Of a DNA stretch of 64,000 nucleotides, positions 1 through 25,866 are shown piece by piece. Where the stretch lies: positions 4,084 to 68,083 of the forward strand of contig CAYHBB010000016.1 in the NCBI GenBank assembly GCA_964354795.1, read 5' to 3'. Numbering within the stretch: the stretch's first letter is position 1; each line of letters starts with the position of its first letter. Origin of the DNA: an uncultured Planctomycetales bacterium. GTDB taxonomy: Bacteria > Omnitrophota > Gorgyraeia > Gygaellales > Profunditerraquicolaceae. A model generated the notes under the pieces. The model was not told where the DNA came from. It saw nothing but the letters and a program-made list of their open reading frames with translations, and made no database searches. Both the position numbers and the translations under genes were made by a program.

Positions 1-696
1 CTGGATACTTCCAAGCCCGGCATCTTTGAGCTTGCCAAGTATCCTGCGAGATAGGCTGGTGCCATTTGTCACTAAGGCCGCGTGCATCCTTAAAGATACG
101 CAGCGCGCTATCAATTCTATAAAGTTTTTGTTCAGCGTTGGTTCTCCCCCTGTAATTGTGCAACGCAAGACTCCCAAAGCGGATGCCTCCTCCAGGACTC
201 TTATAAATTCCTTGTAACTCAATTCATTTTTTGCTTGTTTAGATTCGGATCCCACAAAACAATAACAGCAATTCATATTACAACGATTGGTAAGATAAAG
301 GTCTAATTCCACAGGCCGGTCATACGGTATGCCGGTGTCCCAGGGATTACCCGATTGTATATAAGCCTGTTTCGCGAATATAACCGGATCCGGTAATTGT
401 ATAGGTTCGCGCAGTGGAGTACTTCTTAAATGCAAATAGTTCTTTGAAGACTCCTTTATGAAACCTTCCAGGCTATCTTTAGATATTTTCCGGCCATTAT
501 CAAGGGTTTGCGATAAATCAAAGATCTGGTTTTCCGAGAAGCGGCCGTTACAAAGCGAGATCAAAAAAGCATAGCGCGCCTCCAATGGAAGGTGCGAGCC
601 TGAACATAAATCCATCAAAATAGCGTAATCTTTGCACGGCACAAATGCCGTGGTCTTATTTAACACCGGAAAAGTTTCTTTCAGTTCAATTGCCAT
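1..696 (-). CDS. radical SAM enzyme (rSAM-4), N-terminal 232 aa; 3' end lies beyond window start
   Basis: Manual minus-strand translation from ATG 696..694 stays open to position 1: MAIELKETFPVL...TNRCNMNCCYCFVGS (CxxxCxxC)...TITGGEPTLNKNF. Absent from ORF track because truncated. Starts 9 nt after the stop of the upstream rSAM gene. Confidence 0.6.
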   Translation of the reverse strand, partial: MAIELKETFPVLNKTTAFVPCKDYAILMDLCSGSHLPLEARYAFLISLCNGRFSENQIFDLSQTLDNGRKISKDSLEGFIKESSKNYLHLRSTPLREPIQLPDPVIFAKQAYIQSGNPWDTGIPYDRPVELDLYLTNRCNMNCCYCFVGSESKQAKNELSYKEFIRVLEEASALGVLRCTITGGEPTLNKNFIELIARCVSLRMHAALVTNGTSLSRRILGKLKDAGLGSIQ

Positions 697-704
697 ACGT
701 TTTT

Positions 705-2177
705 CTATTTACAGGCCAACACCGGATTATCCGAAAGTTTGACCTTCGGGCAGTGCGGATCAGGAGCAAACGGGTTATCTGAATAAAGCAAGGCGTAGGC
801 GTGGCAGCCGCCGCGGCAGTGGCTAAGGTGCCTGCATTCAAGACAGGTATCCGTCAATTCATCCTTCGGCGTATTTGCTATACGTTCCGCCTCCTGGCTA
901 TTCCATAAATCCTTTAGCGAAGTTTCCCGAATATTGCCTATTTTTAATGATTCCACGCTTGGCAGCAACTCGCACGGCCCAACATCACCGTTTGGCTGGA
1001 TAACCATGCTTGAAATAAATCCACCGCAGGTTGTGCAATGATCAGGAAGGTTTTTCCACTGCATAGGTTTCTTTAACCCTGTTCCCATGATTGTAACGCG
1101 ATGACCAAAATGTTCTTCTGCCTCATTAAGCCTGTTTAGACAATCTTTGCGCTGCGCGTCACTTAACAATAACTCCTTGCCTCCCCTGCCAAACGGCGCG
1201 TTTCCGTAAGGAGCGAAATCAACGATACGGACCCCTAAATCCAAGCAGGTTTCTATAATTTTTCCCGCAAATTTATAATTTAGCGGAATAACCACGGATT
1301 TGACCATTACCTCAATTCCTGCATCAGATAACTTACGGATATTATTTAAGACTATTTCAAATCCCTTTTGAATTCCTGTCATTTTGTAAAATAAATCTTC
1401 CTCAGCCGCATCAAGGCTCACTTGAATTCTTCTCAATCCCGGCTTGACTAAACCTTTTATTATTTCATCGTTTAAATATAATGCATTAGTGCTTATATAC
1501 GGGTATATGCCTCGTTCAAGTAACGCAGAAATAATCGGCAGAAAGCCTTCATGTAAAGTTGGTTCTCCGCCTGTCACAAAACAACGCACAACTCCCATGC
1601 CAGAGGCCTGCTCAACAATATTAAGCCAATCTTGTGTGTTCAATTCGGATTTGGCCTGGGTTCCTGCGCTGCGGAAACAATAAATGCAGCGCATATCGCA
1701 TTTCTGTGTTAATACTGCTACCAAAAACAAAGGGTTAGGACAGCGCCGGCCCTGAGGCGTCTTTCCATTTGTGGCTTCCTTAAGAATTAATTCCGGCGCG
1801 CATAAAGATTTGGTAGCGCCTGCCTGGGCAAGCGGACCTATTGCGAACATTTCTTTATCAAGGCATTTTTCAAATATAGGCCTTATTTCCTGTTTTGCCC
1901 TAGAGGGTGAAATTTTAAAGGCATAACTTACTATATCCAGAAGCTGCGATAAGCTAAATTTGCCATAGCAAAGACAAAGGGCAAACGCCTGCTCTATCGA
2001 AACTCGCAATTGAGCGCCTGTCCACTTATTGACTATCAGGCAATATTGCCCCCATTGTTTCAGGCATATATCTTTGGTTAATTGCGGAAAGGCTTCTTTG
2101 GGATTATCCCAATCAAGCATCGGCTTTGCCAATAAGTTCTTTTTTACTAATACAGCTGTTTCAGTATTACAAGGCAC
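705..2177 (-). CDS. radical SAM / SPASM-domain peptide-modifying enzyme (rSAM-3)
   Basis: 490 aa. CDMRCIYCF (CxxxCxxC), GGEPTL, C-terminal Cys clusters CTTCGG...CLECRHLSHCRGGCHAY typical of SPASM. About 150-aa N-terminal extension could be a peptide-recognition element. Confidence 0.8.
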   Translation of the reverse strand: MPCNTETAVLVKKNLLAKPMLDWDNPKEAFPQLTKDICLKQWGQYCLIVNKWTGAQLRVSIEQAFALCLCYGKFSLSQLLDIVSYAFKISPSRAKQEIRPIFEKCLDKEMFAIGPLAQAGATKSLCAPELILKEATNGKTPQGRRCPNPLFLVAVLTQKCDMRCIYCFRSAGTQAKSELNTQDWLNIVEQASGMGVVRCFVTGGEPTLHEGFLPIISALLERGIYPYISTNALYLNDEIIKGLVKPGLRRIQVSLDAAEEDLFYKMTGIQKGFEIVLNNIRKLSDAGIEVMVKSVVIPLNYKFAGKIIETCLDLGVRIVDFAPYGNAPFGRGGKELLLSDAQRKDCLNRLNEAEEHFGHRVTIMGTGLKKPMQWKNLPDHCTTCGGFISSMVIQPNGDVGPCELLPSVESLKIGNIRETSLKDLWNSQEAERIANTPKDELTDTCLECRHLSHCRGGCHAYALLYSDNPFAPDPHCPKVKLSDNPVLACK

Positions 2178-2254
2178 TTTTGTTTAATCTCCTTACTTTT
2201 GATAACATAAAGCCGGTGACATAATAAAGCCACCGGCTTTATGTATCCTTATTT

Positions 2255-2431
2255 TTAGATATCTGTCCAAGCGATACATGGTGAACAGCCACCGTGTACT
2301 TCCTGACCTTCCACGCCTCCACGAGCCGCCTTCTTCATCATTGGAGCAGCTTTCCTGCGGAATTTTTTGAATTCCGTGGAGATTTTTTTCAGTTCTCTTT
2401 TAAGACACGCTACATCTTTCGCACTTGCCAT
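2255..2431 (-). CDS. 58-aa precursor-like peptide (third candidate RiPP precursor, no NHLP domain)
   Basis: Manually translated: MASAKDVACLKRELKKISTEFKKFRRKAAPMMKKAARGGVEGQEVHGGCSPCIAWTDI. Strong SD (AGGAGGGAGG) 6 nt upstream. Shares a VEGQ junction and an RKELKKAA-like segment with the two NHLP precursors. Below the 60-aa track threshold. Confidence 0.5.
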   Translation of the reverse strand: MASAKDVACLKRELKKISTEFKKFRRKAAPMMKKAARGGVEGQEVHGGCSPCIAWTDI

Positions 2432-2479
2432 TTTTCCTCCCTCCTTTTTTAATTTTTGTTTACCTGCTTGTTAATTTAA

Positions 2480-2911
2480 TTATCCGCGCAGCGAGCAAGC
2501 GTTGGGACAGGTCCAAGGAAATCTCCATGGCTCCCACCATTCTTGCCCTTCCACGCCCAGTGTTTCAGCTTTCCAGGCCAAGGCAGCCTTTTTAAGCTCT
2601 TTCCTATCCCTGACCGCAAAGATTGACAGCATGCTTTTAGGTACCTTATAGAATATACCGCCCTTATCCATTGCCAGGATTGAAGGCTCTGCCTTGGCTG
2701 TGCCTTTGGGCCTTTGGGGAATAGCTATGTGCCAGGTCTTTGGGGTTTCTTCGATGACAATAATCTTGGCTCCGGGACTGAATTTAACCTTAAGCTCTTT
2801 TTCAATGGTAGCCTTGGGGTTTTTGATCAGACGCCTGCGAAAGGCCTTGTCTTTGTTCGCCTTCGCAACAAGATGCGATTCAGCAGCAAAACGCGAGGTG
2901 TTCCTTGCCAT
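2480..2911 (-). CDS. NHLP (nitrile hydratase-like leader) family RiPP precursor peptide B
   Basis: From internal ATG (MARNTSRF...) with AAGGAGG SD. Leader ...AKANKDKAFRRRLIKNPKATIEKELKVKFSPGAKIIVIEETPKTWHIAIPQRP matches the NHLP pattern. C-terminus ...LGVEGQEWWEPWRFPWTCPNACSLRG. Confidence 0.8.
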   Translation of the reverse strand: MARNTSRFAAESHLVAKANKDKAFRRRLIKNPKATIEKELKVKFSPGAKIIVIEETPKTWHIAIPQRPKGTAKAEPSILAMDKGGIFYKVPKSMLSIFAVRDRKELKKAALAWKAETLGVEGQEWWEPWRFPWTCPNACSLRG

Positions 2912-3794
2912 TCTTAGCCTCCTTTGTTTTTCCGTATGAGATAGGTACGCCAAATAGCTGGACAGCCTCAAACTGCATGCCGTAACAACGCCTTTTAAAT
3001 TGGCATTGCAGACATGGCTGGCCTCCTATCCGGTTATAATGACTTCCTACTCCGTCAAACGCCAGTTCCGCCCCTTCTGGAACATGTAATTCCTCCGCTA
3101 CTTTAAAATTCCTGCCTAAAAGGCAAAAAGGGATCAGTTCAGATCTCAAAGGAACGCGCCTAGATTTACCTAAAAGCGAAACTATCACCTTGATCACCTC
3201 TTCGTATTCCGGGATCAGTTCGCTATGTTTTAAAATATCTCCCATCAAAGCAGGATAAGTTATCCTGTGATTTAAGGCATCCGGGAATCGCTCTTGGACC
3301 AATAGGTGTATTGCCGGTATATCGCGCATGTTGGAGTTGACCGCAACCGTGTTAATGATTGTTTTTACTCCTAATTCAAGGGCATTTTCAATCCCCGCTA
3401 AAGCCTCCTCAAAATGCCTTGTTCCTACTATCCTGTTATGGATATCTGCGCAAGAACCATGTAGCGAAAGCATGGCGCTGTGCAAGCCATGCTGCGAAAG
3501 CTCCTTGGCGAATTTTTTGTCGCAAAAACGAGTTGCGTTGGAAAAAAAGCTGATCCTCTTAAATCCCTTCTTTACAGCCGCATCCATGATCTCGAATATT
3601 TGCGGATGCAAAGTAGGTTCTCCCCCGCTTAACACAATAGTATCGCAGTTGCACAGCGACTTTGCTTTATTAAGGTTGCGCCTAATCTCCCGCAGCGGCC
3701 GATGGAAACAATTTCTTCTCCGGCCTATATAACAGAAACTGCACCGCTGATTGCAATGCGTGGTGATATTTAAAAAAACCTGATTATAGCGCAT
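2880..3794 (-). CDS. radical SAM enzyme (rSAM-2), short C-terminal Cys cluster
   Basis: Start placed at MRYNQVFLNITTHCNQRCSFCYIG (CxxxCxxC near N-terminus). ORF could also begin at 3848 or 3863, overlapping precursor A. GGEPTL present; C-terminal CLQCQFKRRC. Overlaps the start of precursor B by about 30 nt. Confidence 0.75.
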   Translation of the reverse strand: MRYNQVFLNITTHCNQRCSFCYIGRRRNCFHRPLREIRRNLNKAKSLCNCDTIVLSGGEPTLHPQIFEIMDAAVKKGFKRISFFSNATRFCDKKFAKELSQHGLHSAMLSLHGSCADIHNRIVGTRHFEEALAGIENALELGVKTIINTVAVNSNMRDIPAIHLLVQERFPDALNHRITYPALMGDILKHSELIPEYEEVIKVIVSLLGKSRRVPLRSELIPFCLLGRNFKVAEELHVPEGAELAFDGVGSHYNRIGGQPCLQCQFKRRCYGMQFEAVQLFGVPISYGKTKEAKNGKEHLAFCC

Positions 3795-3802
3795 AATACC
3801 TT

Positions 3803-4234
3803 TTATCCGCGAATCCCGCAAGTGGGATAAGCCCAAGGACGATTCCATGGAGATTCCCACCATCCTTGCCCTTCCACATCAGGTGTTTCAGCTTTCCAGG
3901 CCCTAGCAGCGCTTTTAAGTTCTTTCCTGCCCCTGACTGCAAAGATTGACAGCATGCCTTGGGGAACCTTATAGAAAATACCTCCTTTATCCTTTACCAG
4001 GATTGAAGGCTCTGCCTTGGCTGTGCCTTTGGGCCTTTGGGGAATAGCTATGTGCCAGGTCTTTGGGGTTTCTTCGATGACAATAATCTTGGCTCCGGGA
4101 CTGAATTTGACCTTAAGCTCTTTTTCAATGGTAGCCTTGGGGTTTTTGATCAGACGCCTGCGAAAAGCCTTGTCTTTGTTCGCCTTTACGACAAGCTGCG
4201 ATTCAGCAGCAAAACGCGAGATGTTCTTTGGCAT
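3803..4234 (-). CDS. NHLP family RiPP precursor peptide A (paralogue of B)
   Basis: From internal ATG (MPKNISRF...) with AAGGAGA SD. Near-identical NHLP leader. C-terminus ...PDVEGQGWWESPWNRPWAYPTCGIRG. Confidence 0.8.
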   Translation of the reverse strand: MPKNISRFAAESQLVVKANKDKAFRRRLIKNPKATIEKELKVKFSPGAKIIVIEETPKTWHIAIPQRPKGTAKAEPSILVKDKGGIFYKVPQGMLSIFAVRGRKELKSAARAWKAETPDVEGQGWWESPWNRPWAYPTCGIRG

Positions 4235-4253
4235 TTTTAGTCTCCTTTCTAAA

Positions 4254-5642
4254 TTAATTGTCACTATACTCAAGCATTAACCTTTTCTCTATGTTATATT
4301 TAAATGTCGGGCATGGCGCGTCGCATTCAAGCCAGCGCCTTGGACATGCACCGCCGCATAATGGCAAGACTCTGCAGGTCCCGCAAGGAACTTCTCCCTG
4401 CTCTATGCGATCATTAAATCCGGATAAAAGAACCCGATTCCCCGGATTTTTGCCGCCGGATAATGACCCTATAGAAAAAATATTCCTGCCTGTTCCATTT
4501 TTAGAACTTGACCCTGCTGGCTTTTCATACATCTGAGAGATTACGTCCGCGCAGTTAAACAGATTGCCAAAAGCATCCACTACCTCTGATGACGCATCTA
4601 TCGCAAAGCAAGCCTTCTTCAGGCGATGCGGGATAAGGTTTATGTTTTGTAATCCGAGATGCTTCATCTGTTCGAGCCATTTAATTTCCCGCGAAGCGAT
4701 CTCCTCTGTTTTGCCAAAAATTCTGTCAGTTAAGCTGCCCCGATCATGCACAGGTATTATAGAAAAACCGTTTAGCCGTTTAAAAACGGCCTTATCCGCC
4801 AGTTCCCGCATCAAGGCGGAAACTCCTTCATAATTGCGATGGTCAACATTACACCGTACCTGGATCTTCATTTTAGATTTTTCATTACGCGCAATCGCGA
4901 TCACATTTTTAAGGATTTTGCCAAATGTCGGCATCCCATTCTTTCCGCATCTTCTCTTATCGTGATACAATTTCGAGCCATCAAGCGTCACTTCGGCAAG
5001 AGTAATGCCGCATTCTCTCGACAGTTCTGCGGCAATTTTGGGGGTAAAAAGCAGGCCATTGGTCATAATATCAGAGATATAATCACACTCAAATTCTCTG
5101 GCCAAGGACATAAACTTCGGGCTCATTTTCCGGATAACATCCAAAGCCAATAAAGGCTCCGCCCCGGTCCAACAGACTTTTAGTTCCCGGTATGGATGCC
5201 TTTCTAATTTGTTTCGCACCCGCTTTAAAAAAAGTTTCTGATTAGCGCTGCTTATTTTTTTTTTCTTGTGCGCCTGGCCGCAGTAGGAACAATCAAACTG
5301 GCAATCTGCCGAAGGCAACACCCCAAAAGCAAGCCTATGGCTATTTACAATGACCTGATGATTCTCCTTCAAGACAGATGCCAATTCATCTTCATCTAAG
5401 CTAACTATAATCTTGGATGCTTTTAACGCCTCCATTAAGCCGTGGGATAACGAATCAAAATCCCCGGTATAGATATGCTCCCACTGCTTGGCAGTTACAA
5501 TTTTAACTGCATCGGTTCTCGTTGCAAAAATAATGCGTTTCTCTTGTCTTTCCAAAGGGCTGAAAAATTTATCCGTTACTATGAGATAGCGCGAGAGTTT
5601 ATAATTGCCTATATCGCGATTTACTCTTAACGCAGTAATCAT
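4254..5642 (-). CDS. radical SAM / SPASM-domain peptide-modifying enzyme (rSAM-1)
   Basis: 462 aa. CQFDCSYCGQ (CxxxCxxC), C-terminal CGTCRVLPLCGGACPRRWLECDAPC SPASM-like clusters. About 110-aa N-terminal domain before the cluster. Confidence 0.8.
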   Translation of the reverse strand: MITALRVNRDIGNYKLSRYLIVTDKFFSPLERQEKRIIFATRTDAVKIVTAKQWEHIYTGDFDSLSHGLMEALKASKIIVSLDEDELASVLKENHQVIVNSHRLAFGVLPSADCQFDCSYCGQAHKKKKISSANQKLFLKRVRNKLERHPYRELKVCWTGAEPLLALDVIRKMSPKFMSLAREFECDYISDIMTNGLLFTPKIAAELSRECGITLAEVTLDGSKLYHDKRRCGKNGMPTFGKILKNVIAIARNEKSKMKIQVRCNVDHRNYEGVSALMRELADKAVFKRLNGFSIIPVHDRGSLTDRIFGKTEEIASREIKWLEQMKHLGLQNINLIPHRLKKACFAIDASSEVVDAFGNLFNCADVISQMYEKPAGSSSKNGTGRNIFSIGSLSGGKNPGNRVLLSGFNDRIEQGEVPCGTCRVLPLCGGACPRRWLECDAPCPTFKYNIEKRLMLEYSDN

Positions 5643-6433
5643 TCTATGTTTACATGCCTTTTTAAAATGGAAAATTTATCAAGCACCGCTTTTACCTGGC
5701 AGCTTCGGATATCAGGAAAAACACTGAGCAAAAGAGCTGCTATTCCGGTTATGTGCGGCGTGGCAAAACTAGTTCCTGAGCTGCGATGATATTCCCCATT
5801 CAGATACACCAGCTCCAGATCCTGGCCCCTTGCGCCGTATTGAATCCTATTTTTTAAATAACGCGTTACTTTATATTTATCTTCGTAATCTTCGCAATCC
5901 ACGCTTATAACAGAGGAAAACATCGCCGGATATCCTAAGGGCCCGAAGTTTCGTTTTGAGACAACCAAAATAGTATCCTGAACATAGGCTTGTTCGCATA
6001 AATCAAAAAGCGCCGGAACGAATTTTTCGTTTATGGTAGCCAAGCTCATATTGATGAGCTTAAATTTTTTATCCAGCGCCCAACGCAACCCTGCTATTAA
6101 GGCCTCGCCTGAGCCTGTATTATTTTCTCCGAGGACTTTTACGCTTGTTATTTCTACATCAGGAGCTAAGTCTAAGATTATTCCCGCAACGCCGCTGCCG
6201 TGGCCGAATGAGTCAGAACTTTTTTTGCCCGGGATTCCCTGGCATCTGATTTTGCCATTATGGTCATGGACGACGCAGGCTCGTTTTACTTTTCCGCGCA
6301 GAGCCGGATGTGATGCGTCAACACCGCTGTCAATAATAGCTACCTTTACTCCCTTACCGGTACTATTGCTAACTAGCCATTTTATATTTAAGCGAGGATT
6401 TATAAGTGGCAGGATGTGAGCCTTGGTTTTCAC
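5639..6433 (-). CDS. subtilisin-like serine peptidase (S8), no signal peptide or prodomain; candidate leader peptidase
   Basis: Catalytic motifs VAIIDSGVD (Asp), FGHGSGVAGII (His), GTSFATPHITG (Ser). 264 aa, begins directly at catalytic domain. 4-nt overlap with rSAM-1. Confidence 0.8.
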   Translation of the reverse strand: MKTKAHILPLINPRLNIKWLVSNSTGKGVKVAIIDSGVDASHPALRGKVKRACVVHDHNGKIRCQGIPGKKSSDSFGHGSGVAGIILDLAPDVEITSVKVLGENNTGSGEALIAGLRWALDKKFKLINMSLATINEKFVPALFDLCEQAYVQDTILVVSKRNFGPLGYPAMFSSVISVDCEDYEDKYKVTRYLKNRIQYGARGQDLELVYLNGEYHRSSGTSFATPHITGIAALLLSVFPDIRSCQVKAVLDKFSILKRHVNIE

Positions 6434-6436
6434 TGC

Positions 6437-7174
6437 TTATTTTCCTTCTCGCAAGCTGCCCTTCCAACTCAGCTCGCCGGCAATCCGGCCGATAATCTCA
6501 ACTAAATCCGCGCAAAGCGGCATTAAATCTTTCCGCTTTTGAGAAAGGTTCCCAAGATTGCGCGCAATATCCACAGCTGCTTTGTCAGAACGCTTTAAAA
6601 ACTTAACCCCGCCCTTTTTTCCCAAAAGCATATTGCGCACAGCTTCCTCGCGCCTGAGCTGGCGTATAACCATTCCGCAGAGCTGGGAAAAACGGCTGTA
6701 AAGCTTTACATCTTGGCTTGAAAAAACTCGGCCCTTTTTAAAGGTAACTGCTGTAATTACTCCAATAACTTCACCTTCAACAAGCATCGGAGCGGCTAAC
6801 ACAGCTTCGGGTTCATTTGGATGCTTCTTTTCATAATCTGCCTGTTTTACGCCGTGATAAGTAGGAGCACCCGTCTGAGGCTCTCCTGTTGACGCGGCTA
6901 ATCCGGTAATTCCTTTGTGCATTGAAAAACGCTGCCCCTTAAGGCGCTGCTGGACTTCATGCTCGCCGATAGTAATCATAAATTCCAGTTCCTGCCTTTT
7001 CTTATCCAACAAGAGCAACGAACCTTCGTCGGCGCTCATCATCCCTACTCCTATTTCCATAATAAGGCGAAGAAGCTCATCGTCTTTTAATTCTTCCCCG
7101 AAGGATAGATACGCGGCAAGCGCCACAAGATTCTTAAATGGAAGCTCTTTTCTTGATGCTTTTTTCTTAACCAT
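6437..7174 (-). CDS. GAF domain protein
   Basis: 245 aa; GAF-like pattern (GSLLLLD...GITGLAASTGEP...VIGVITAV). No DNA-binding or kinase domain. First gene of the co-directional cluster. Confidence 0.5.
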   Translation of the reverse strand: MVKKKASRKELPFKNLVALAAYLSFGEELKDDELLRLIMEIGVGMMSADEGSLLLLDKKRQELEFMITIGEHEVQQRLKGQRFSMHKGITGLAASTGEPQTGAPTYHGVKQADYEKKHPNEPEAVLAAPMLVEGEVIGVITAVTFKKGRVFSSQDVKLYSRFSQLCGMVIRQLRREEAVRNMLLGKKGGVKFLKRSDKAAVDIARNLGNLSQKRKDLMPLCADLVEIIGRIAGELSWKGSLREGK

Positions 7175-7468
7175 ATATTCTTTCCCTTTTTACTAGCGTT
7201 TATAATTTATAATACATTTTGCCTATCTTTATTTTACAATATGGGATTAAAGAGGATCTGCCATAACGGCAGTGCCATAGCACAACACTTCTGATTAAGC
7301 GCAGATAACTCTATTATAAGACAACTAGCTAAAATCTCAACCATAATTGTATAAACAGATATAGCCATACATACGTGGTAATGAATTTACGAGCCATTGC
7401 TGCATGTCTCTGTTGACTACAAACGTATGTACTGCGTTTGTTGAGAAATGGTGATCTGAATATCTGAA

Positions 7469-8878
7469 TTATTTTTTGGAAGGAACCAGGAACACTACCT
7501 CTCCCTCTCCTTCGAGACGACCGTACTGCGGCGTCTGCAGATTGTCCGAGGCACGCGAGACCTGAGGCATGAGGTAGGCGCCAAGCTCCGAGGCGGTCAC
7601 CACCCCATCGTTGTCCCGGTCAGCCTCCCCGTCAATCCCTTGCAAAAAATATTGCGTGAAGAGACCGTGCCCATCAAGTTCGACGACCTGCTCCGCTTTA
7701 CCACCCGCGGTGATCATCTGCACCGAACGTAACGACGTGATCTTCTGGATGTAGCCGTTGATCCCCGGATCCACGCCTAAGGCCCGGGTGAACCCTAGAC
7801 CAGAATAACAGGCGTCCATCGCATACAGGATGTGCTTGGCCGGAATCCGCTCGGATATATCACGCACCTGCTGCATGGAGATGGCCGTCGTAAAATAGTT
7901 GGTGATATCACCGTCGACCGGAATAATGTAACCCTTCTCTTTCCCGTCGGGCATGGATTCGGTCTGTCCGTGGCCAGCAAAGAAAATTAGCACACGATCA
8001 TCCGGCCCGACGTTTTTGGGAAGTTCGGACCCGAGCACGGTCAGAATGCGTTCCCGAGTCGCTTCTTTATCCAGTATCTCGATGACCTCATCGAAACCGA
8101 TCTCTCTAAGCTTCTTCGCAACGACCTGCGCATCGTTTGCCGCATACTCCAGCGGCGGCCAGAGATCGTATTTGTTGATCCCGATCACGACCGCCCAGCT
8201 TTTGCGGTAGAAACTCCCGGCTTTAAGCTCGGCGGGTTCCGCGGACGACTCCGCTGTTCTAACGACAGATGCCGGTAAGCTACGCCGCTGGGCAAAGGAA
8301 GTCATCAGTTCAGACTTGTCCAGGCCGCTCTCGAACTGCTTGAACGCTGGCCCCAGCGCCGCATCGAAGCCATAGCTAAAGGAAACATACGCCGGTGTCG
8401 AGAGCCCGCTGCCTTTAATGGTGTCAATAATGTGCCCCTGCCGATTCGTAAAGGTGCTGGTGATGTCCACCGTGGTGTTCTGGTCGACTTTTTGGCAGAT
8501 CGTACAGCGATAATCAAATGCAAGGATCAGATCCACGTCGGATTTGACCGCATCGTCCATGCTGGCAAACTTCGTCACGCGTTTGAAACGCGACTGAATG
8601 ATTTTGTTCAATCCTTGAGTCACCTTTTTCGGATCGCACTTTTCGAGGAACGGAACAAAGACTCTGTGCCCGTGACGCATATGTTTTCTCATGTAGTCGA
8701 AAGCTTGTTCCGTGTTCTCGGTGTACACCAGTCCAAGATGGATACTCGCTAATGGACCGCCCTGCCCGTAGACCGCTCCTGGTACGACAACTTGTTCCTT
8801 ATAGCTTGGCGTTGCGAGGCATCCAAAGAGAGAAAAACAGGCAATAGTAATAAGCCAATAAAATTTTTGTAAGTTCAT
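7469..8878 (-). CDS. caspase-like (peptidase C14) lipoprotein
   Basis: Start moved to MNLQKFYWLITIACFSLFGC (lipobox, GGAGA SD); the longer track ORF overlaps the upstream gene. C-terminal half has the caspase His/Cys dyad: FFAGHGQTE and DACYSG. Confidence 0.65.
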   Translation of the reverse strand: MNLQKFYWLITIACFSLFGCLATPSYKEQVVVPGAVYGQGGPLASIHLGLVYTENTEQAFDYMRKHMRHGHRVFVPFLEKCDPKKVTQGLNKIIQSRFKRVTKFASMDDAVKSDVDLILAFDYRCTICQKVDQNTTVDITSTFTNRQGHIIDTIKGSGLSTPAYVSFSYGFDAALGPAFKQFESGLDKSELMTSFAQRRSLPASVVRTAESSAEPAELKAGSFYRKSWAVVIGINKYDLWPPLEYAANDAQVVAKKLREIGFDEVIEILDKEATRERILTVLGSELPKNVGPDDRVLIFFAGHGQTESMPDGKEKGYIIPVDGDITNYFTTAISMQQVRDISERIPAKHILYAMDACYSGLGFTRALGVDPGINGYIQKITSLRSVQMITAGGKAEQVVELDGHGLFTQYFLQGIDGEADRDNDGVVTASELGAYLMPQVSRASDNLQTPQYGRLEGEGEVVFLVPSKK

Positions 8879-8915
8879 GGGTTTTGTCTCCTCATTGCCT
8901 TGTGATACGTTTGTA

Positions 8916-9860
8916 TTAGTAATGGAGGTTTGAATATCTGATTTGAAGCAGCTTTTCCCGGCGTTGCCGTATTGCCTCGCTTTGGCTATGTGTTGCACAG
9001 ATAATTCCATACTGCGTAAGCGCGGCATCATAGAGGCGGTAATTCTCAAGAAACAGAATAAATGCCAGGCGCGTAGCTGTCTTTTGAGCATTACGCGACA
9101 GTTCCTCCTGGAAACGCGCTATGTCCGCGCTTAAATACGCGACATCCCTTTCTTTTAACAAATAAAAATAACTGCGTTTCTCAGCGATGACTCTTCTATT
9201 TTTTAAACCTTTGACGTCCCATTTGTAACGGGCGCCAAAGGTAAGGGGGGTTTCAGATTGAGGGTAGGGCAGCTCTTCCCCGGTAGTCGTACTCTGCCAG
9301 AGAAATTTAGCGCCCGGCTCAAGATAAAGGGTCACCGTATAGCTGTCCGCGCCATTCACCGGCTTCCAGCTAAAGGTCGGCCGTTGCTCAAGTATAGCGG
9401 TATTAGAAAGCCCGGTTACTTCTATTTTGCTGTTGAGCGTAACCTCATCTGAACTACTCAGCCCCCTCAGTGTAAAACTACCCTTCTGCGGAGAATCTAT
9501 CTGCGGTAATACCACTTTATTGTTTGCAATAAGCACTCCAGAAGGAATGTGCTTGCTTTGGGCAATTCCCACAACAACTTTCATGCTTCCCGGCCATTGT
9601 TCTTGCTGGCCGGATTCCAAATAATTAATCGTAAAGGAGGCATCCTTTGCGAGCTCTACCATATCACCCGAATACAACAGTTCTCCTAAACCAACTTCTC
9701 TCTTTTTCCCATTCCGCACCAAAGAAACATTCCCTCCTGTATCCATAATAATCGCGCTATAGGAACTATTTTCTGCGACCGCGATCTCGGGCAGAGTGAA
9801 AACGAGAAACGTAAGTGCGGCAACAAGAGAATAAAGGTATGTGTGGCTATTTTTCATCAT
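8916..9860 (-). CDS. secreted protein with FecR-like N-terminal domain and Fn3/Ig-like middle region
   Basis: Signal peptide MMKNSHTYLYSLVAALTFLVFTLPEIAVA. GNVSLVRNGKKREVGLGELLYSGDMVELAKDASFTI resembles the FecR fold pattern. Weak assignment. Confidence 0.4.
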   Translation of the reverse strand: MMKNSHTYLYSLVAALTFLVFTLPEIAVAENSSYSAIIMDTGGNVSLVRNGKKREVGLGELLYSGDMVELAKDASFTINYLESGQQEQWPGSMKVVVGIAQSKHIPSGVLIANNKVVLPQIDSPQKGSFTLRGLSSSDEVTLNSKIEVTGLSNTAILEQRPTFSWKPVNGADSYTVTLYLEPGAKFLWQSTTTGEELPYPQSETPLTFGARYKWDVKGLKNRRVIAEKRSYFYLLKERDVAYLSADIARFQEELSRNAQKTATRLAFILFLENYRLYDAALTQYGIICATHSQSEAIRQRREKLLQIRYSNLHY

Positions 9861-9983
9861 TAAGAGTTATTAAGAAACTTCATTAGTTTATTTTCTGCGT
9901 TATAGAATCGTTGCGTTTGCACCTTAAGCATTTTAAGGGCAACCTCAGGAAACTTTGAGCAGTTTCATGGTTATGTAACTATG

Positions 9984-10955
9984 TTATACGTGTATCGCGC
10001 GAGGAATTGGAATACTGTGGCAAGGGGTCTTTGGCGATATCTCCTCGACCATCTTTTCCAAAAGCCCCACCTTCCCTTCGAAATCAAGCCAGGCCCATTC
10101 GCCATTGGCATTCACCTCTAAAAAGAAGTAGTCCCCATTTGCATACAGCATATCCAGCCGGCCGAAATGAAGCCCTAAGTCGTGCATAAAATGAACTATG
10201 GAATGCTCAAGGGATCTAGGAAGGTGATGGATACACCAGGCGTCCGTAGCGGTATCGGGGCCCATTTCGCGCCAGTCCACGGTTTTGTCTAAAAAAGGTT
10301 CTCGGTTGAGTTCAAACCCATACATCTTACCCCTGACAAAGACAATGGTAATATCGGATGAAGCATTTACATAGTCCTGTATCAGCCATGGAGTCGAGGG
10401 GTCTAATTGATCCTCTTGAACCCTCGTGGTATAGAGAACCGCGTTTTCATTCACTCGTTTTGAGGTGAGACTTTTAACGATGGAAGACTTTCCTTTTTCA
10501 AAAAATTCCGCCGAGCCACTTACGAATTTGTATGGCGGAATTTTAAAATACTTGCTCGCGACTTTGAGCTGAACAAGCTTTCCTATCCTGGCATCTGCCA
10601 TGGGCTCTACGAGAACAAGCTTGCCTTTCGACCAGGCCAGATTGACCATATCGCGCAGCGCATACGAAACTTCTTCTTGCATATAGACAATCTCAGTGCG
10701 GATCTTGCGGTTAGGATACAGCTGCTGTGTCATAAACGGCCTGCGCCAATAGAACTTAGCGATATCGCTGCTGGTAATACAGCGACCGGCCGGGTTTTCG
10801 ATGGAGAATTGAGAATGGTCAATTTTTATTTTGTATTCTTGCCATAAATCAAGATTAAAGCGAAAAACATTCTCGCTTCCAATTTTAGAGATCAATAGAT
10901 CAACCGTGAGATCTAAAGAATTGGTGTAGATAAAAGTGACGGAATTCATCCCCAC
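9984..10955 (-). CDS. ATP-grasp family ligase (peptide-maturase-like)
   Basis: 323 aa. C-terminal GRLDMLYANGDYFFLEVNANGEWAWL matches the ATP-grasp Mg-binding E-x-N region. Size and layout fit RiPP-type ATP-grasp enzymes. Recalled homology only. Confidence 0.55.
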   Translation of the reverse strand: MGMNSVTFIYTNSLDLTVDLLISKIGSENVFRFNLDLWQEYKIKIDHSQFSIENPAGRCITSSDIAKFYWRRPFMTQQLYPNRKIRTEIVYMQEEVSYALRDMVNLAWSKGKLVLVEPMADARIGKLVQLKVASKYFKIPPYKFVSGSAEFFEKGKSSIVKSLTSKRVNENAVLYTTRVQEDQLDPSTPWLIQDYVNASSDITIVFVRGKMYGFELNREPFLDKTVDWREMGPDTATDAWCIHHLPRSLEHSIVHFMHDLGLHFGRLDMLYANGDYFFLEVNANGEWAWLDFEGKVGLLEKMVEEISPKTPCHSIPIPRAIHV

Positions 10956-10983
10956 TGCTTTCGGTGCTTAGTTTCCGCTATTA

Positions 10984-11163
10984 TCACGCATCAGCCTCTT
11001 GTGAGCCTTCACCGTCAAACAAGGTGCTGCTCTTAAGGGCGTGCTTAAGCCCGGGGCACGTAAGATCCAGCTCGCGGCGCTGAGTGTGATGATCATAGGG
11101 CGCCTTCTCTACTTCTTTAATGACACTGCCTTTGCAGCGAGCCAACTCTAAAATTGTCTTCAT
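10984..11163 (-). CDS. 59-aa peptide, candidate ATP-grasp substrate/precursor
   Basis: ATG at 11163 with AAAGGAGGTGA SD 8 nt upstream (the track's GTG start is 3 codons earlier). MKTILELARCKGSVIKEVEKAPYDHHTQRRELDLTCPGLKHALKSSTLFDGEGSQEADA. Tail is rich in S/T/K and D/E. Confidence 0.4.
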   Translation of the reverse strand: MKTILELARCKGSVIKEVEKAPYDHHTQRRELDLTCPGLKHALKSSTLFDGEGSQEADA

Positions 11164-11249
11164 TGCGTTCACCTCCTTTATTTGAAATTGTTATTTACCA
11201 CACACGTCTTCCCTTTTTAAAACAATGGCAAGAAAGATTTGTTACGCCG

Positions 11250-12689
11250 TCACACACTGATGCTTTTAAGCGCGAACTCGCGAATCCTGTTCTCTAAATT
11301 CCCGCGTATGAACCAATAACAGTGATCGTCGTCTTTTAACTTTCCCGACTGAAAACGTCTTTTATGCGCGCAGCCGCCTGCACATTGAGGCAGTACGGGA
11401 CATTTTTTGCACATATCATACTGGAACCAATCATAATTCAGCCAGGGAATTAAATTGCTGAATATAATAGGGTACTTAAGAAAGATTGAGCCATACGCTC
11501 GTTCAACCAACCCCAGATCTTCGACGCATTTATACAGTTCACCTTCGGGGCCGATAGTTGCAGAAGAGTAGCAGGTCGCTGCGCAGCCAGCGTTGCTGGC
11601 TTTTGTCAACGGAACGAAGGTCATAAAAGCTAAACCTAAGGCTTTGGCTTTAGCGGTTTCGCGTCTTAAAATTTCCAAATATGGCTGTGGAGGGATATGC
11701 TGGATTACACAGCCGTCCCTGGCGCACTCCGGCTCAAAAACATTGGCTATATTGATTGATTGTATCCGTTTGTGCAAGTTTCTTCGGATAAGACCGTCAT
11801 AGAGTTGGTCAAACTCCTTTTCATTATCCTGAGTAAGATTAATACGGACGTGTATTCTTAACTTTTCTGCCGCGATACTTAAATTTTCCAGCACTTTATC
11901 CAGAGTATCCCGCCCTTGTTTGTCTTGTTTTGTTGATTTCGGAATATCAACTGTTACCTGAACCAAAGAAACCCTGTATTTATGGAGTAAATTAACAACA
12001 TCCCGGTTTAATAAAGTTCCGTTGGTGGACGACAAGCCGTGGTATTCAATTCCGGCCTTATCAAATGCGGGAATAATCCGGGAGCTGATGCGCTCTATCG
12101 TTCCTACGGCAAGTAACGGTTCTCCTCCGAACCAAACAATCTGCACTCTCTTTTTCTCTCGGGATATTCTGGCGATGTAAGAAACAACTGCATTTTCAGT
12201 TTCCCGGGACATCATTTTGCGATTACGGATAATCTGGGCTTTTCCTTCAAAGCAATAAGGACATTGTAAGTTGCAAAGCAGTGTGGGTACGACATTCAAA
12301 CTTAATATATCATTCCTGTAGCGGGAAAATAAAAGCTGCTGTTTGACAATTTCAAGTTCGTTAATATTTTTGGAGACAAAGAAACCTTTTGAATAAAGAA
12401 GGTGCATGGGCTGCGGAATAGATTTTCCACGCATTTGATATTCAGAACCACGAGATAGGTATTTACGCCAGGCATCGCGATTCAGAATAGCGAGAGTTCC
12501 GGTGAGTGTATTATATACTGCCTTCTTATTGTCAGGTAAATCAACCGATACATTGAACTGCGAGGGGATCCAAGTATCCGAAAACAACTCGTATGCTCTT
12601 TTTACAGATGCCGTTGCGGAAAACAAATTTACTTCTGACTTAGCTTCGGGTGACACTTCAAAAACAGCAGTGGGGTTTTCGTTAGGCAT
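11250..12689 (-). CDS. radical SAM / SPASM-domain enzyme (rSAM-5)
   Basis: CNLQCPYCFEG (CxxxCxxC), GGEPLL, C-terminal CKKCPVLPQCAGGCAHKR SPASM motif. Track start is TTG; ATG start at 12689 (MPNENPTAVF) chosen. Confidence 0.8.
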   Translation of the reverse strand: MPNENPTAVFEVSPEAKSEVNLFSATASVKRAYELFSDTWIPSQFNVSVDLPDNKKAVYNTLTGTLAILNRDAWRKYLSRGSEYQMRGKSIPQPMHLLYSKGFFVSKNINELEIVKQQLLFSRYRNDILSLNVVPTLLCNLQCPYCFEGKAQIIRNRKMMSRETENAVVSYIARISREKKRVQIVWFGGEPLLAVGTIERISSRIIPAFDKAGIEYHGLSSTNGTLLNRDVVNLLHKYRVSLVQVTVDIPKSTKQDKQGRDTLDKVLENLSIAAEKLRIHVRINLTQDNEKEFDQLYDGLIRRNLHKRIQSINIANVFEPECARDGCVIQHIPPQPYLEILRRETAKAKALGLAFMTFVPLTKASNAGCAATCYSSATIGPEGELYKCVEDLGLVERAYGSIFLKYPIIFSNLIPWLNYDWFQYDMCKKCPVLPQCAGGCAHKRRFQSGKLKDDDHCYWFIRGNLENRIREFALKSISV

Positions 12690-12863
12690 ATCTATTAAGC
12701 CTTTGGTTTTGCAAATAGCAGCAGGCAATTTAAAAAAAATCAATTTGCATTGCCGGGGCAGAATTTATCCAATCATCCACGTCAGGATTACTATCTACCC
12801 AGCGGCAGCATGCAATCTTAAGATTTCAGTTCTCTTAGGTATAATACAGCAGCGGCAGTTGTA

Positions 12864-13064
12864 TTATAAGCAAGATGCAAAATAACTTCTCTTGTCCATG
12901 CAGCAGGTGGTCAAATCCACGACATAATCGCAACTTTGACCCGCTACTTCTGCAGATTTTTTCTTGTTGGCTTTTTCAAACTTCGCCTTTGAAATCTTAC
13001 ATTTTTTTAAAACACTGGTTGGTATTGCGTAATATTTTTTCCCTGATTTAATTAGTATCGACAT
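12864..13064 (-). CDS. 66-aa Lys-rich/Cys-rich peptide, candidate rSAM-SPASM substrate
   Basis: SD AGGAGGGG 6 nt upstream. MSILIKSGKKYYAIPTSVLKKCKISKAKFEKANKKKSAEVAGQSCDYVVDLTTCCMDKRSYFASCL. Four Cys in last 24 residues. Immediately upstream of rSAM-5. Confidence 0.45.
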   Translation of the reverse strand: MSILIKSGKKYYAIPTSVLKKCKISKAKFEKANKKKSAEVAGQSCDYVVDLTTCCMDKRSYFASCL

Positions 13065-13314
13065 GGTTTTCCCCTCCTAGCTTTTTGTACCCACACAAAG
13101 GTTGCTTTTAACACCCATTTGGGTCATTCTTTACTACTGAACTACTGAATCTTATCTTGCTATTTCTCTATTTTTTCATCACCTCCTTTTTTTTATAACT
13201 TTCTTTAGTTTTAAAGAAAATTTATCCTTATCCATTGTAGGGTATTATAGCATAAAAAAACGCCTTGATAGCAAAATAAAATCGGCGGAACTTCAGCTGA
13301 CACAACAGCCAAAC

Positions 13315-14259
13315 TCAAGGTTTTCCCTCCAGATAAGCAATAATTGCGGGTGCCGCTTTGCCGTATTCTTCACGCAGCATCTCACAAAACATTTTCCAAT
13401 GACGCGCGGTATCGTCTGTAGCTAATGTACGAGCAATTTCATAAAAGTTATTTCCTGCTGTCGTGGCATGTGGAACCACTATGCTCCCCTGAAATGAATT
13501 CTTATCATCCTTGTTAAGTTCGCAATGAAGCACTTCTTTATCTCCCACTACGTAATCAAGGGCGTTTGTGTAGGTGGGATTGTTTTTACGTATTTTATAT
13601 TCCTCATCCGTATGAAACCGTATCTCAGGATGCTGCGTATGCAACTCCTTGAGTAACTCCTCCGCCGAACCAGCCCTGGGGCGAAACATCTCATTATCTA
13701 ACAGCCAACTGAAATAATAATAGCCGGAACGAATTCCGGGAGGAATTCCTGCCTTCCAGTCCATAGGCACAAGGGGTTTATTGTCGCGTAAAAGCCACTC
13801 TACATAATTGGAATGCGAGTAAAAATCCTGGAGAGTATGAAATGCCTCTCCCAGCATGTACAGCACCCTATTTCTGGATTTCGGATTACCAACTACATTC
13901 GCGGCAGCTATTTTTGCAATGTTCAACTGATGCGTAATATATTCATAACTATCACGAATGCGATTATCATCAAAATGGTGATGGGGGGAATTGGTGAATT
14001 TAGAGCTGAAAGGCCAATCCTGGCTATTGCAGCCTTCAATAATCTTACCTATGCTTTGTTCTTGGAATCCCAGAGGAGTGAGGGCATCTTTCAAGATGCT
14101 TTCGTGAATGGGCTCGCCGAAACCAAAGCGGGTCTTAAAGGCATGGCTATTGTGCGGCACACAAAAAATAAATAGCGCTGCTATCCATATCCACAAACAA
14201 CCATGTTTTGACACCTTATTTACAGACCTTATGTTTATTTCGCTAAACACTATAGACAC
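13315..14259 (-). CDS. secreted Het-C-like / zinc-phospholipase-C-fold protein
   Basis: Signal/TM MSIVF...LWIWIAALFIFCVPHNSHA. Motif HTLQDFYSHSNYVEW resembles the Het-C domain signature. Memory-based. Confidence 0.4.
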   Translation of the reverse strand: MSIVFSEINIRSVNKVSKHGCLWIWIAALFIFCVPHNSHAFKTRFGFGEPIHESILKDALTPLGFQEQSIGKIIEGCNSQDWPFSSKFTNSPHHHFDDNRIRDSYEYITHQLNIAKIAAANVVGNPKSRNRVLYMLGEAFHTLQDFYSHSNYVEWLLRDNKPLVPMDWKAGIPPGIRSGYYYFSWLLDNEMFRPRAGSAEELLKELHTQHPEIRFHTDEEYKIRKNNPTYTNALDYVVGDKEVLHCELNKDDKNSFQGSIVVPHATTAGNNFYEIARTLATDDTARHWKMFCEMLREEYGKAAPAIIAYLEGKP

Positions 14260-14312
14260 TGTATAAGCCGATTATTAAGAACATCCCGGGATTAGAGAGA
14301 CGATTTTTTATT

Positions 14313-14915
14313 TCAATAAAGACTGGAGAGAATAGTCTTAACCGCTTTTTGAATTTCCTTTTCCTTATCTAAAGATGGAACGGTTGCCCTGATTTTGCAA
14401 ATATAACCCTTTAACCCTGTAATGTATAGATAAGAAAGCCTATTCCCCAGCGAAGCGCCGTCTAAGGGATCAATTGACTCCAATGAAAAAGACACAGAGA
14501 GCACCTTGAGCGTTTTGCTATTGCTTAATGAGAAATCCATCTGGGTTTCAGAAAGAATCTTCACATTACGATACAGGATATTCTCAAGTGATTTTATTTC
14601 TTCTAAGGCAGAATCTTTTGCTTTACGAATTGCTTCTGAACCAACGCCATCTTTTATTCCTTGCTCACCAAGGTTATAGACATACACAGTTAAATCTGAG
14701 CCAAAAGAGGATAGGCTGTGATAACCCAGAGAAGCACCCATTGCTTCATCCTCATAGGTCATTATGCTGCTCTCGGCAGCAAAATCTCCGATCTGTAAAG
14801 GAAGAGTACTTAAGATTTCTTGCGCTTTCTCAGCATAGGCAGAAGAAACGCTTAAGGATAATACCCCCATTAAGAAAAATATCATTATTCTTGAAATCTG
14901 AAGTTTCATTTCCAT
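14313..14915 (-). CDS. secreted hypothetical protein
   Basis: Signal peptide M(E)MKLQISRIMIFFLMGVLSLSVSSAYA. Its RBS and first 8 codons are nucleotide-level homologous to the serpin gene head. Confidence 0.5.
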   Translation of the reverse strand: MEMKLQISRIMIFFLMGVLSLSVSSAYAEKAQEILSTLPLQIGDFAAESSIMTYEDEAMGASLGYHSLSSFGSDLTVYVYNLGEQGIKDGVGSEAIRKAKDSALEEIKSLENILYRNVKILSETQMDFSLSNSKTLKVLSVSFSLESIDPLDGASLGNRLSYLYITGLKGYICKIRATVPSLDKEKEIQKAVKTILSSLY

Positions 14916-19126: not shown

Positions 19127-19145
19127 TTTCATCCTCCTTTTCAAA

Positions 19146-19250
19146 GCAAAGCCCGCTGCAATATATTCTATCACAGCGAGTTAAGAAGTCAAACTCTCCC
19201 TAGCTTCGCTTTTTACCCAATTCTCACTTTCGCTTTTTACTCGATTTTGG
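19146..19250 (-). promoter_or_regulatory. repeated promoter cassette, copy C
   Basis: -35 rc of AGTCAA 19187..19192, -10 rc of ATTCTA 19165..19170. Stem CCCGCTG/CAGCGAG. Confidence 0.55.
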
Positions 19251-25479: not shown

Positions 25480-25866
25480 TTATTTAATGTTGACAACAAA
25501 TTCTTCAATTTTTACCGGCGCTACACCCTTTTCCCAGGAACGTAAATATTGAAAGGATATATTTGTGCTACCGGGTTTAAGCGCTTTAAAGGTCCACTGC
25601 TGCTCGCATCCTGCTCCGATAAGAGTCGTATCTTCGGTCAGATATTCAGTGCCTAATAGCTGCAGGAATTGCGGATCAAGCGGCTTTGCCAGCTGCCACT
25701 CATAGCCGGTAGAAGGATTGGCGTAAACAGAGATGGCAAACTCCTCCCCTGCTTTAACTTCCATCAACTTCTTACCGTCAACAACCTTGACCACTGAGCT
25801 GTCTTTGCAGGCAAATAAACTCAAACAGCATAACAAAAAACCAAGCGCGAATATCCTGCTTTTCAC
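25480..25866 (-). CDS. chagasin-like (I42) peptidase-inhibitor lipoprotein
   Basis: Lipobox MKSRIFALGFLLCCLSLFAC. Motif NPSTGYEW matches the chagasin NPTTGY(S/E)W signature; about 110-aa mature size. Confidence 0.5.
   Translation of the reverse strand: MKSRIFALGFLLCCLSLFACKDSSVVKVVDGKKLMEVKAGEEFAISVYANPSTGYEWQLAKPLDPQFLQLLGTEYLTEDTTLIGAGCEQQWTFKALKPGSTNISFQYLRSWEKGVAPVKIEEFVVNIK

Follow-up and report, generated by a model that had tools for sequence, protein, structure and literature searches.

A probable composite RiPP island in Omnitrophota: several precursor classes with their own radical SAM enzymes around shared processing and export genes

At one end of the window analysed here (64,000 nucleotides of contig CAYHBB010000016.1, from an uncultured bacterium of the phylum Omnitrophota), three peptide precursors stand among four radical S-adenosylmethionine (rSAM) enzymes, which raises the question of whether all four enzymes act on one peptide or whether several pathways lie side by side. 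We consider it likely that the region is a composite island for ribosomally synthesized peptides that undergo post-translational modification (RiPPs), in which precursor classes with their own rSAM enzyme or enzymes share processing and export genes, and not a single pathway. From the list of open reading frames (ORFs) and their translations, the minus-strand order is GAF, S8, rSAM1, PreB, rSAM2, PreA, PreC, rSAM3 and rSAM4, the last interrupted by the window edge at base 1; the nine co-directional, tightly packed genes described in an initial annotation of this DNA were found as listed. Coordinates are those of the whole window (Table 1), and related loci are labelled L001-L008, L171, L174 and L176, in addition to contig ERZ1426817. 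The annotation had confined the system to positions 1-7174, but it proved to be larger: in orthologous contigs, genes for an ATP-binding cassette (ABC) exporter and a cyclic nucleoside monophosphate (cNMP)-binding protein come after rSAM4, beyond window base 1, and a fourth precursor, PreD, lies with rSAM5 and an ATP-grasp enzyme at 9984-13064.

Gene presence and absence across related loci divided the island into blocks. L171, a contig from an Omnitrophota metagenome-assembled genome with ~95% DNA identity to the window, reads PreD-rSAM5-59 aa-ATP-grasp-313 aa-C14-YbjQ-GAF-S8-PreC-rSAM3-rSAM4-ABC-cNMP-binding. A 3.2-kb segment of the window (5668-2458), containing rSAM1, PreB, rSAM2 and PreA, is absent from it, and blastn placed the join in L171 at 7639-7657. 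The breakpoint, which is clean, falls within the 3' end of the S8 gene, so that the last ~nine residues of the protease differ. rSAM3 and rSAM4 travel with PreC, which was always succeeded by these two genes in the loci examined, and we propose rSAM3, with its paralogue rSAM4, as the putative PreC maturase. Precursors led by a nitrile hydratase-like leader peptide (NHLP) were found with rSAM2 and no other rSAM gene in ERZ1426817, a 36.5-kb contig that reads GAF-S8-ABC-cNMP-precursor-rSAM2; likewise, L007 reads NHLP-NHLP-rSAM2-ABC-cNMP, and L004 reads GAF-S8-NHLP-rSAM2, without rSAM1. Because these three loci pair such precursors with rSAM2 alone, rSAM2 appears to be the enzyme tied to the NHLP-led, Trp/Pro-rich peptides. 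The missing block in L171 and the rSAM2-only pairings both speak against the earlier claim that four rSAM enzymes act on one Trp-rich core.

What unites the precursors is a short junction ahead of the core. In each of PreA, PreB, PreC and PreD, V-[EA]-G-Q stands 15-23 residues ahead of the stop; no other credible ORF of the window has it, and two spurious frames matched at most 40 residues from a stop. In the general form V-x-G-Q (as a consensus, D/G-V-x-G-Q), the junction is common to all four window precursors and to those of most related loci, and most precursors also carry a '[FY]-x-[IV]-P' ("YxIP") leader module. In PreA and PreB, the second leader module (ILVKDKGGIFYKVP...) is a homologue of the PreD leader (ILIKSGKKYYAIP...). 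In 2.0 Mb of unrelated loci, the combined leader motif occurred twice, spuriously, compared to three occurrences in the window and four in L176.

The same elements recur in other loci. In L174, where S8 is 68% identical to that of the window, GAF-S8-ABC-cNMP comes after a precursor of the Nif11 type, which ends in DVSGQ, and another SPASM rSAM enzyme; a CHASE2 guanylate cyclase is next. In Pseudomonas sp. 9AZ (L176, LR733840.1, 9226-15833; S8 51% identical to that of the window), GAF-S8 precedes four tandem small ORFs, each with a '..YA[IV]P' module, DVTGQ and an unrelated core, after which comes an ABC transporter fused at its C-terminus to a cNMP-binding domain; no rSAM gene was found near these peptides. 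The leader travels with a set of GAF, QhpE-like S8, ABC and cNMP-binding genes as far as Pseudomonas. Other neighbours in L176 are an RyR/TPR-S protein and an HD protein. A literature search on such a system (rSAM/NHLP/Omnitrophota RiPPs; GAF-subtilisin-cNMP-ABC) returned no description of it.

We suggest three precursor classes, namely the NHLP-led PreA and PreB with rSAM2 and an extra rSAM1, PreC with rSAM3 and rSAM4, and PreD with rSAM5, which the GAF protein, S8, the ABC exporter and the cNMP-binding protein would jointly serve. Module-specific rSAM enzymes would act on the core before the leader is removed; S8 would then cut at V-x-G-Q, perhaps guided or gated by the GAF protein, which might act by binding the leader or by gating the protease; and the ABC transporter would export the product, possibly under cyclic-nucleotide control. 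Cleavage before export was proposed because of the precedent of QhpE and because the exporter has no C39 peptidase domain, so that a separate leader peptidase would be needed.

The protease S8 scored 107.2 bits on Peptidase_S8 (PF00082; gathering score 21.8), has its catalytic residues D34, H78 and S231 in canonical motifs and carries no N-terminal hydrophobic segment, signal peptide or prodomain; from these features, it is predicted to be a prodomain-less cytoplasmic subtilase. Domain searches thereby confirmed the earlier description of a subtilase with a D/H/S triad and no signal peptide or prodomain, as well as that of its partner as a GAF-only protein. The best curated match of S8 was QhpE (NF049966; 111.3 bits, under the cutoff of 165), and its top match in the Protein Data Bank (PDB) was subtilisin BPN'. 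The family of such small S8 enzymes is broad, with 274 related clusters of 250-275-residue proteins in several phyla, and V-x-G-Q peptides were found near the gene in all seven contexts examined (7/7). A GAF gene lies immediately upstream of S8 in L001, L004, L171, L174, L176 and ERZ1426817. No family in NCBIfam, Pfam or PADLOC covered these leaders or the GAF partner, and a PADLOC comparison of the GAF, S8, ABC and cNMP-binding proteins to known anti-phage defence systems returned only generic domain-level matches, namely to subtilase and to the portion of Pycsar effectors that binds cNMP, with pVip matching the rSAM core.

On the export side, a CHASE2 guanylate/adenylate cyclase gene adjoins the GAF-S8-ABC-cNMP genes in two independent contexts (L174, 15004-16842, and ERZ1426817); the window ORFs tested included no such gene. 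Together with the cNMP-binding protein, these cyclases hint at cyclic-nucleotide signalling linked to peptide export. In L171, the nucleotide-binding domain of the ABC exporter (10898-13462) is split by an insertion of ~200 residues, with ABC_tran matches at 354-454 and ~653-823.

The reading of the cluster as RiPP-type was upheld: its precursors are led by NHLPs, the cores are hypervariable and there is more than one rSAM maturase. On the NHLP model (TIGR03793; cutoff 50.9 bits), PreB scored 51.2, above the cutoff, and PreA 50.3, 0.6 below it; on Pfam NHase_alpha (gathering score 27.2), the two scored 44.4 and 46.9 bits, both above. PreA and PreB are identical at 109 of 123 leader residues (89%) and at 6 of 20 core residues (30%), a conserved leader with a divergent core that by sequence looks like the usual RiPP pattern, and their Trp/Cys-rich tails had been quoted exactly. 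Upon aligning 12 NHLP-type precursors, we found that the leader invariantly ends in V-E-G-Q and that the core is hypervariable. In the cores, a Trp beside Pro is conserved, frequently as W-x-x-P-W-x-x-P, and so is [ILV]-R-G at the C-terminus; cores from rSAM2-only clusters (e.g., P0010) are Ala-, Val- and Pro-rich. Cys is not conserved across the NHLP-type cores, so that a thioether cannot be what defines the family. These precursors are rare: only ten relatives were found at 90% clustering among 5.8 billion proteins, and an exhaustive HMMER search of 1.84 billion proteins with the second leader module and core found nine representatives. A protein identical to PreB is present in public collections, and PreC is annotated as MCX5704564.1 in an Omnitrophota metagenome-assembled genome; close relatives of the window proteins carry a Candidatus Omnitrophota annotation. 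Each 143-residue peptide had been said to directly precede an rSAM gene, which is true of PreB but not of PreA, since PreC comes next.

Among the enzymes, rSAM2 makes up a tiny and distinct family. The start of rSAM2 most likely lies at Met24 of a 327-residue ORF (base 3794), because relatives align only from there. An auxiliary motif (C224, C261-x2-C264-x5-C270) is conserved in relatives together with C48, which is invariant and outside the cluster motifs; SPASM gave no match even at E=1, and an N-terminal recognition domain is lacking. Close relatives form five clusters only, after which matches fall to E=1e-17 (generic rSAM similarity). Its nearest NCBIfam models are TrsS, which scored slightly higher, and HxsC/HxsC4, all far under cutoff (HxsC TIGR03977, 71.6 bits, cutoff 267.9), and no Hxs partner genes were found. 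rSAM2 adjoins precursors or shares their cluster in L001, L002, L003, L004, L005, L007, L008 and the ERZ1426817 gene list. Its distant relatives, at 25-30% identity, are HxsC4-like: among 160 loci from scans with the rSAM2 alignment and generic GGEPT patterns, we obtained unrelated or distant HxsC4-like rSAM enzymes and no precursor, GAF or S8 homologue, and a contig scan with rSAM2 alone as query gave no match. HxsC4-like rSAM enzymes of ~310 residues are widespread (Elusimicrobia, Saccharibacteria, Myxococcota and archaea, with tandem fusions in L018 and L043) and have the C-terminal Cys motif of rSAM2, with no recognisable precursors nearby. As for the chemistry of rSAM2, an oxidative Trp crosslink seems the foremost candidate, although short of an even chance, epimerisation would be distinctly less probable, and some other reaction would account for the rest.

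rSAM1 scored 27.4 bits on the Radical_SAM Pfam model, under the gathering score of 29.5, compared to 68-93 bits for rSAM2, rSAM3 and rSAM4, and it aligns full-length to TIGR04463 (185 bits; cutoff 525), with Clo7bot, CefB and PapB as next best models. Its SPASM motif, CX13GX4C...CX2CX5CX3C, was read directly from the sequence. All four enzymes had been credited with GGEPTL; rSAM1 departs from this with TGAEPLL. rSAM1 was found in L001 and L003 and, in the order rSAM1-NHLP-rSAM2-NHLP-NHLP, in L003/L005, and not beside the NHLP genes of L004 and ERZ1426817. It was seen only in loci with a C-terminal Cys in one core or more, all from three related lineages, and we propose it as an optional, lineage-specific accessory maturase for PreA/PreB-type precursors. 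rSAM1 and rSAM5 are similar to maturases that make thioethers, and Cys thioethers are the most probable products predicted for both.

rSAM3 and rSAM4 are of the SPASM type. rSAM3 matched PqqE, SkfB and 5v1q in the PDB sequence search at a generic rSAM level; rSAM2 likewise found only generic rSAM matches, and rSAM1 none. Full-length rSAM4 orthologues (L002, L171), which the ABC exporter and cNMP-binding genes follow, carry SPASM, an orthologue scoring 47.3 bits, and the SPASM model TIGR04085 scored 43 bits on rSAM5. Of the three SPASM-type clusters first assigned to the four enzymes, those of rSAM3 and, as a motif, rSAM1 could be located and rSAM2 has none; that of rSAM4 would lie beyond the window and was seen only in orthologues. 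PqqE, anSME and MoaA were considered as identities and rejected, all scores being far under cutoffs: PqqE TIGR02109 (cutoff 381) gave 143 bits for rSAM3 and 144 for the rSAM4 orthologue, with no pqq genes nearby, and anSME TIGR03942 (cutoff 349) gave 55-71 bits for rSAM1, rSAM3 and rSAM5. None of the enzymes therefore falls into a characterised non-RiPP family.

How, then, do other explanations fare? The genes are co-directional and tightly packed, probably in one operon, all precursors have the same junction and protease, and multi-rSAM RiPP pathways are known, so that all four enzymes might act in turn on the Trp/Cys-rich 19-20-residue cores of PreA and PreB to yield a heavily crosslinked peptide, with PreC as a minor extra substrate. 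However, L171 retains rSAM3, rSAM4 and PreC without the NHLP genes, rSAM1 and rSAM2, the NHLP precursors of ERZ1426817, L007 and L004 come with rSAM2 only, and the cores lack conserved Cys; we hold such a single pathway to be quite improbable. That rSAM2 is instead a leader-dependent L-to-D epimerase, as are PoyD and OspD, with protease-resistant products that are linear or lightly crosslinked and not cyclophanes, strikes us as unlikely. The NHLP leader is a proteusin hallmark, the invariant C48 could be an H-atom donor and the cores of rSAM2-only clusters have a fitting Ala/Val/Pro-rich composition, but the best 25 NCBIfam matches of rSAM2 include no epimerase family (the presence of a PoyD model in that library is unconfirmed), rSAM2 has no leader-binding domain at its N-terminus of the kind usual in these enzymes, and conservation in the cores is strongest for Trp, Pro and the C-terminal RG. 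A role in maturing an enzyme subunit or protein-derived cofactor, like that of the QhpC/D/E/F system of quinohemoprotein amine dehydrogenase, in place of secreted products, is suggested by the QhpE match of S8 and by a combination of rSAM/SPASM enzyme, small subtilase and ABC exporter that mirrors the qhp operon. We give this very little credence, as no homologues of qhpA, qhpB or qhpG were found in the cluster (nor of qhpC nearby), the QhpD model TIGR03906 gave only 39-72 bits compared to a cutoff of 453, and several paralogous precursors with hypervariable cores are unexpected for an enzyme subunit.

A number of points also weigh against the composite island itself. The enzyme-precursor pairings are drawn from which genes are present or missing in a small number of metagenomic contigs, most of them close relatives, and the co-directional, probably co-transcribed genes of the window would allow for possible cross-talk between modules. 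L008 has rSAM2 and a precursor-like peptide without V-x-G-Q, and no GAF, S8 or ABC gene in 5.7 kb. Motifs such as the 'PW' and 'VRG' of the rSAM2-linked cores are found in the Pseudomonas peptides too, where no rSAM gene is nearby, and may be there for what the product does and not for rSAM2 to recognise. Cleavage at V-x-G-Q is predicted from the conservation boundary, and S8 falls under the QhpE cutoff. The AlphaFold2 model of rSAM2 has a predicted local distance difference test score <50 for residues 221-304, the auxiliary-cluster region, and is unreliable over these C-terminal 84 residues. Within the composite island, we would put forward only tentatively that rSAM2, as a minimal HxsC-like enzyme with one auxiliary cluster, defines a new RiPP class, with an undescribed modification on Trp/Pro-rich cores, and that the GAF/S8/ABC/cNMP set, with its 'YxIP...D-V-x-G-Q' leader, is a cyclic-nucleotide-gated system for peptide maturation and export found across phyla, the two being linked. 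Possible modifications would then be a crosslink from Trp to Pro or to the backbone, or a reaction at the conserved [ILV]-R-G of the C-terminus, and the GAF, S8, ABC and cNMP set, often beside CHASE2 cyclases, could possibly be an undescribed peptide-signalling or regulated-bacteriocin circuit.

Comparison to known systems places the composite island among several of them. Proteusins combine an NHLP leader, a short hypervariable core, rSAM maturases and several precursor paralogues per locus (polytheonamide PoyA/PoyD, landornamide OspA/OspD), and the window precursors share the long nitrile hydratase-like leader, the hypervariable core, the rSAM enzymes and the paralogues. Unlike in proteusins, the best NCBIfam matches of all four window rSAM enzymes are to no epimerase or B12-rSAM family (with the same reservation on the PoyD model), the leaders add a 'GGIFYKVP...AW' module and have V-x-G-Q where proteusins have Gly-Gly, the leader would be removed by a small S8 enzyme and not by a C39-ABC or papain-like protease, and the Trp/Pro-rich cores end in [ILV]-R-G. 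In the qhp system, the cytoplasmic subtilisin QhpE cuts the leader from QhpC once an rSAM enzyme has crosslinked it, and ABC export follows (PMC7876137). The likeness lies in a prodomain-less cytoplasmic subtilisin with QhpE as best curated match; the differences are the score of 111 compared to a cutoff of 165, substrates that are small hypervariable peptides rather than an enzyme subunit, the missing qhpA, qhpB and qhpG and the added GAF and cNMP-binding partners. Maturases of the ranthipeptide/SCIFF/TIGR04463 type (PapB, CteB, CefB, Clo7bot) are the best full-length matches of rSAM1 and rSAM5, with a 7-Cys SPASM, and rSAM5 lies beside the Cys/Asp-rich PreD. At 185 and 216 bits compared to 525, however, neither is a member, the leaders differ and the substrates of rSAM1 have at most 1-2 Cys.

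rSAM2 shares with HxsC/HxsC4 (TIGR03977, NF038332) a short architecture without SPASM and counts these among its nearest curated hidden Markov models, but it has no HxS-repeat peptides or HxsB/HxsD partners and scored 71.6 compared to 268; we know of no established chemistry for HxsC. Trp-cyclophane rSAM enzymes (StrB, WgkB, DarE, triceptide synthases, WprB), which link the Trp of W-x-x motifs to an sp3 carbon close by, provide a precedent for a Trp crosslink, although homology of rSAM2 to them can be demonstrated only for the rSAM core (47 bits on the WgkB model, cutoff 650). Among them, WprB, of the twitch type, has one auxiliary cluster and works with a chaperone, WprC, that is a protein of its own (PMC11851443). 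The pair of WprB and WprC is comparable to rSAM2 and GAF. As in the export systems of NHLP and Nif11 precursors (TIGR03796/TIGR03797), an ABC exporter accompanies the precursors. Some members of that transporter family carry cNMP-binding domains. The window-type transporter differs from them in having no C39 domain, in scores of 61-90 bits on these models compared to cutoffs >700, in a cNMP-binding domain that is a separate protein or, in Pseudomonas, a C-terminal fusion, and in the insertion of ~200 residues in its nucleotide-binding domain.

If confirmed, the island would add a new family of rSAM-modified peptides from a barely explored phylum, and would be a natural case of plug-in maturase modules around one processing and export set. 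The V-x-G-Q leader and cleavage motif with its dedicated small protease might become a tool for RiPP engineering, and rSAM2 would be a first functional handle on an uncharacterised HxsC-like rSAM branch. As the same gene set is present in an isolate genome (Pseudomonas sp. 9AZ), direct experiments may be feasible there on the protease, the GAF protein and the cNMP-binding component.

Table 1. Positions of the RiPP island genes and associated elements in the window
Feature	Position	Strand	Details
rSAM4, first 232 residues of a 478-482-residue radical SAM/SPASM enzyme	1-696	-	rSAM3 paralogue, ~29-32% identity
rSAM3 radical SAM/SPASM enzyme, 490 residues	705-2177	-	N-terminal extension of ~145 residues; Radical_SAM 90 bits, SPASM 49.9 bits
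RNA hairpin	2201-2247	-	directly 3' of PreC stop, before rSAM3; -30.3 kcal/mol
PreC precursor, 58 residues	2255-2431	-	Lys-rich leader unrelated to PreA/PreB; GVEGQ junction; core EVHGGCSPCIAWTDI
PreA precursor, 143 residues, PreB paralogue	2480-2911	-	GVEGQ junction; core EWWEPWRFPWTCPNACSLRG
rSAM2 radical SAM enzyme, 304 residues	2880-3794	-	CNQRCSFC; SGGEPTL; one auxiliary four-Cys motif
PreB precursor, 143 residues	3803-4234	-	NHLP domain; 'GGIFYKVP' leader module; DVEGQ junction; core GWWESPWNRPWAYPTCGIRG
rSAM1 radical SAM/SPASM enzyme, 462 residues	4254-5642	-	CQFDCSYC; full 7-Cys SPASM motif; TIGR04463 185 bits
S8 minimal subtilase, 264 residues	5639-6433	-	triad D34/H78/S231; Peptidase_S8 107 bits
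GAF-domain protein, 245 residues	6437-7174	-	GAF residues 32-170, then conserved C-terminal tail of ~75 residues; GAF_2 42.6 bits
Promoter-like site TTGAGA-16-TATAAT	7313-7340	-	upstream of GAF gene; 11/12 matches, best in 1-14500
rSAM5 radical SAM/SPASM enzyme, rSAM1 paralogue	11250-12743	-	TIGR04463 216 bits (cutoff 525)
PreD, Cys-rich precursor, 66 residues	12864-13064	-	'KKYYAIP' leader module; EVAGQ junction; core SCDYVVDLTTCCMDKRSYFASCL; relatives P0074-P0076

The nine genes are probably co-transcribed as one operon, as judged from their arrangement. The promoter-like site upstream of GAF is a suggestive candidate for the operon start; the total count of such sites in 1-14500 equals the shuffle expectation. 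Strong ribosome-binding sites (AAGGAGG) lie ahead of PreA and PreC, and the hairpin 3' of PreC may be an attenuator that sets the precursor:enzyme ratio or a stabiliser of the mRNA. Rfam and tRNA scans of the window gave no matches.

PreD opens a second RiPP module (9984-13064, minus strand), in which it is accompanied by rSAM5, a conserved 62-residue ORF (10984-11172) and an MvdC/MvdD-like ATP-grasp enzyme that scored 99.5 bits on an MvdC/MvdD-type model, under its cutoff. The PreD-rSAM5 pair is kept in L001 and L171, and rSAM5, whose true start is probably Met19, near base 12689, is the probable maturase of PreD. The layout of this module resembles a grasp-with-SPASM system and is conserved in both loci. 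Between the two RiPP modules (7469-9860, minus strand) lie genes for a C14 caspase-like protein and a secreted 314-residue protein, the N-terminal domain of which recurs at 43-44% identity directly after the cNMP-binding gene in L171 (13976-14486) and L174 (13883-14281). Just upstream of PreD, 13315-14259 (minus strand) encodes a secreted protein with a VWA7_N/Het-C-like domain that is also present at the edge of L001. Farther away, the region that holds the caspase-like and S8 proteases also encodes a full-length serpin (17927-19174, minus strand; Pfam 410 bits) and, at 25480-25866 (minus strand), an I42 peptidase inhibitor of the chagasin family.

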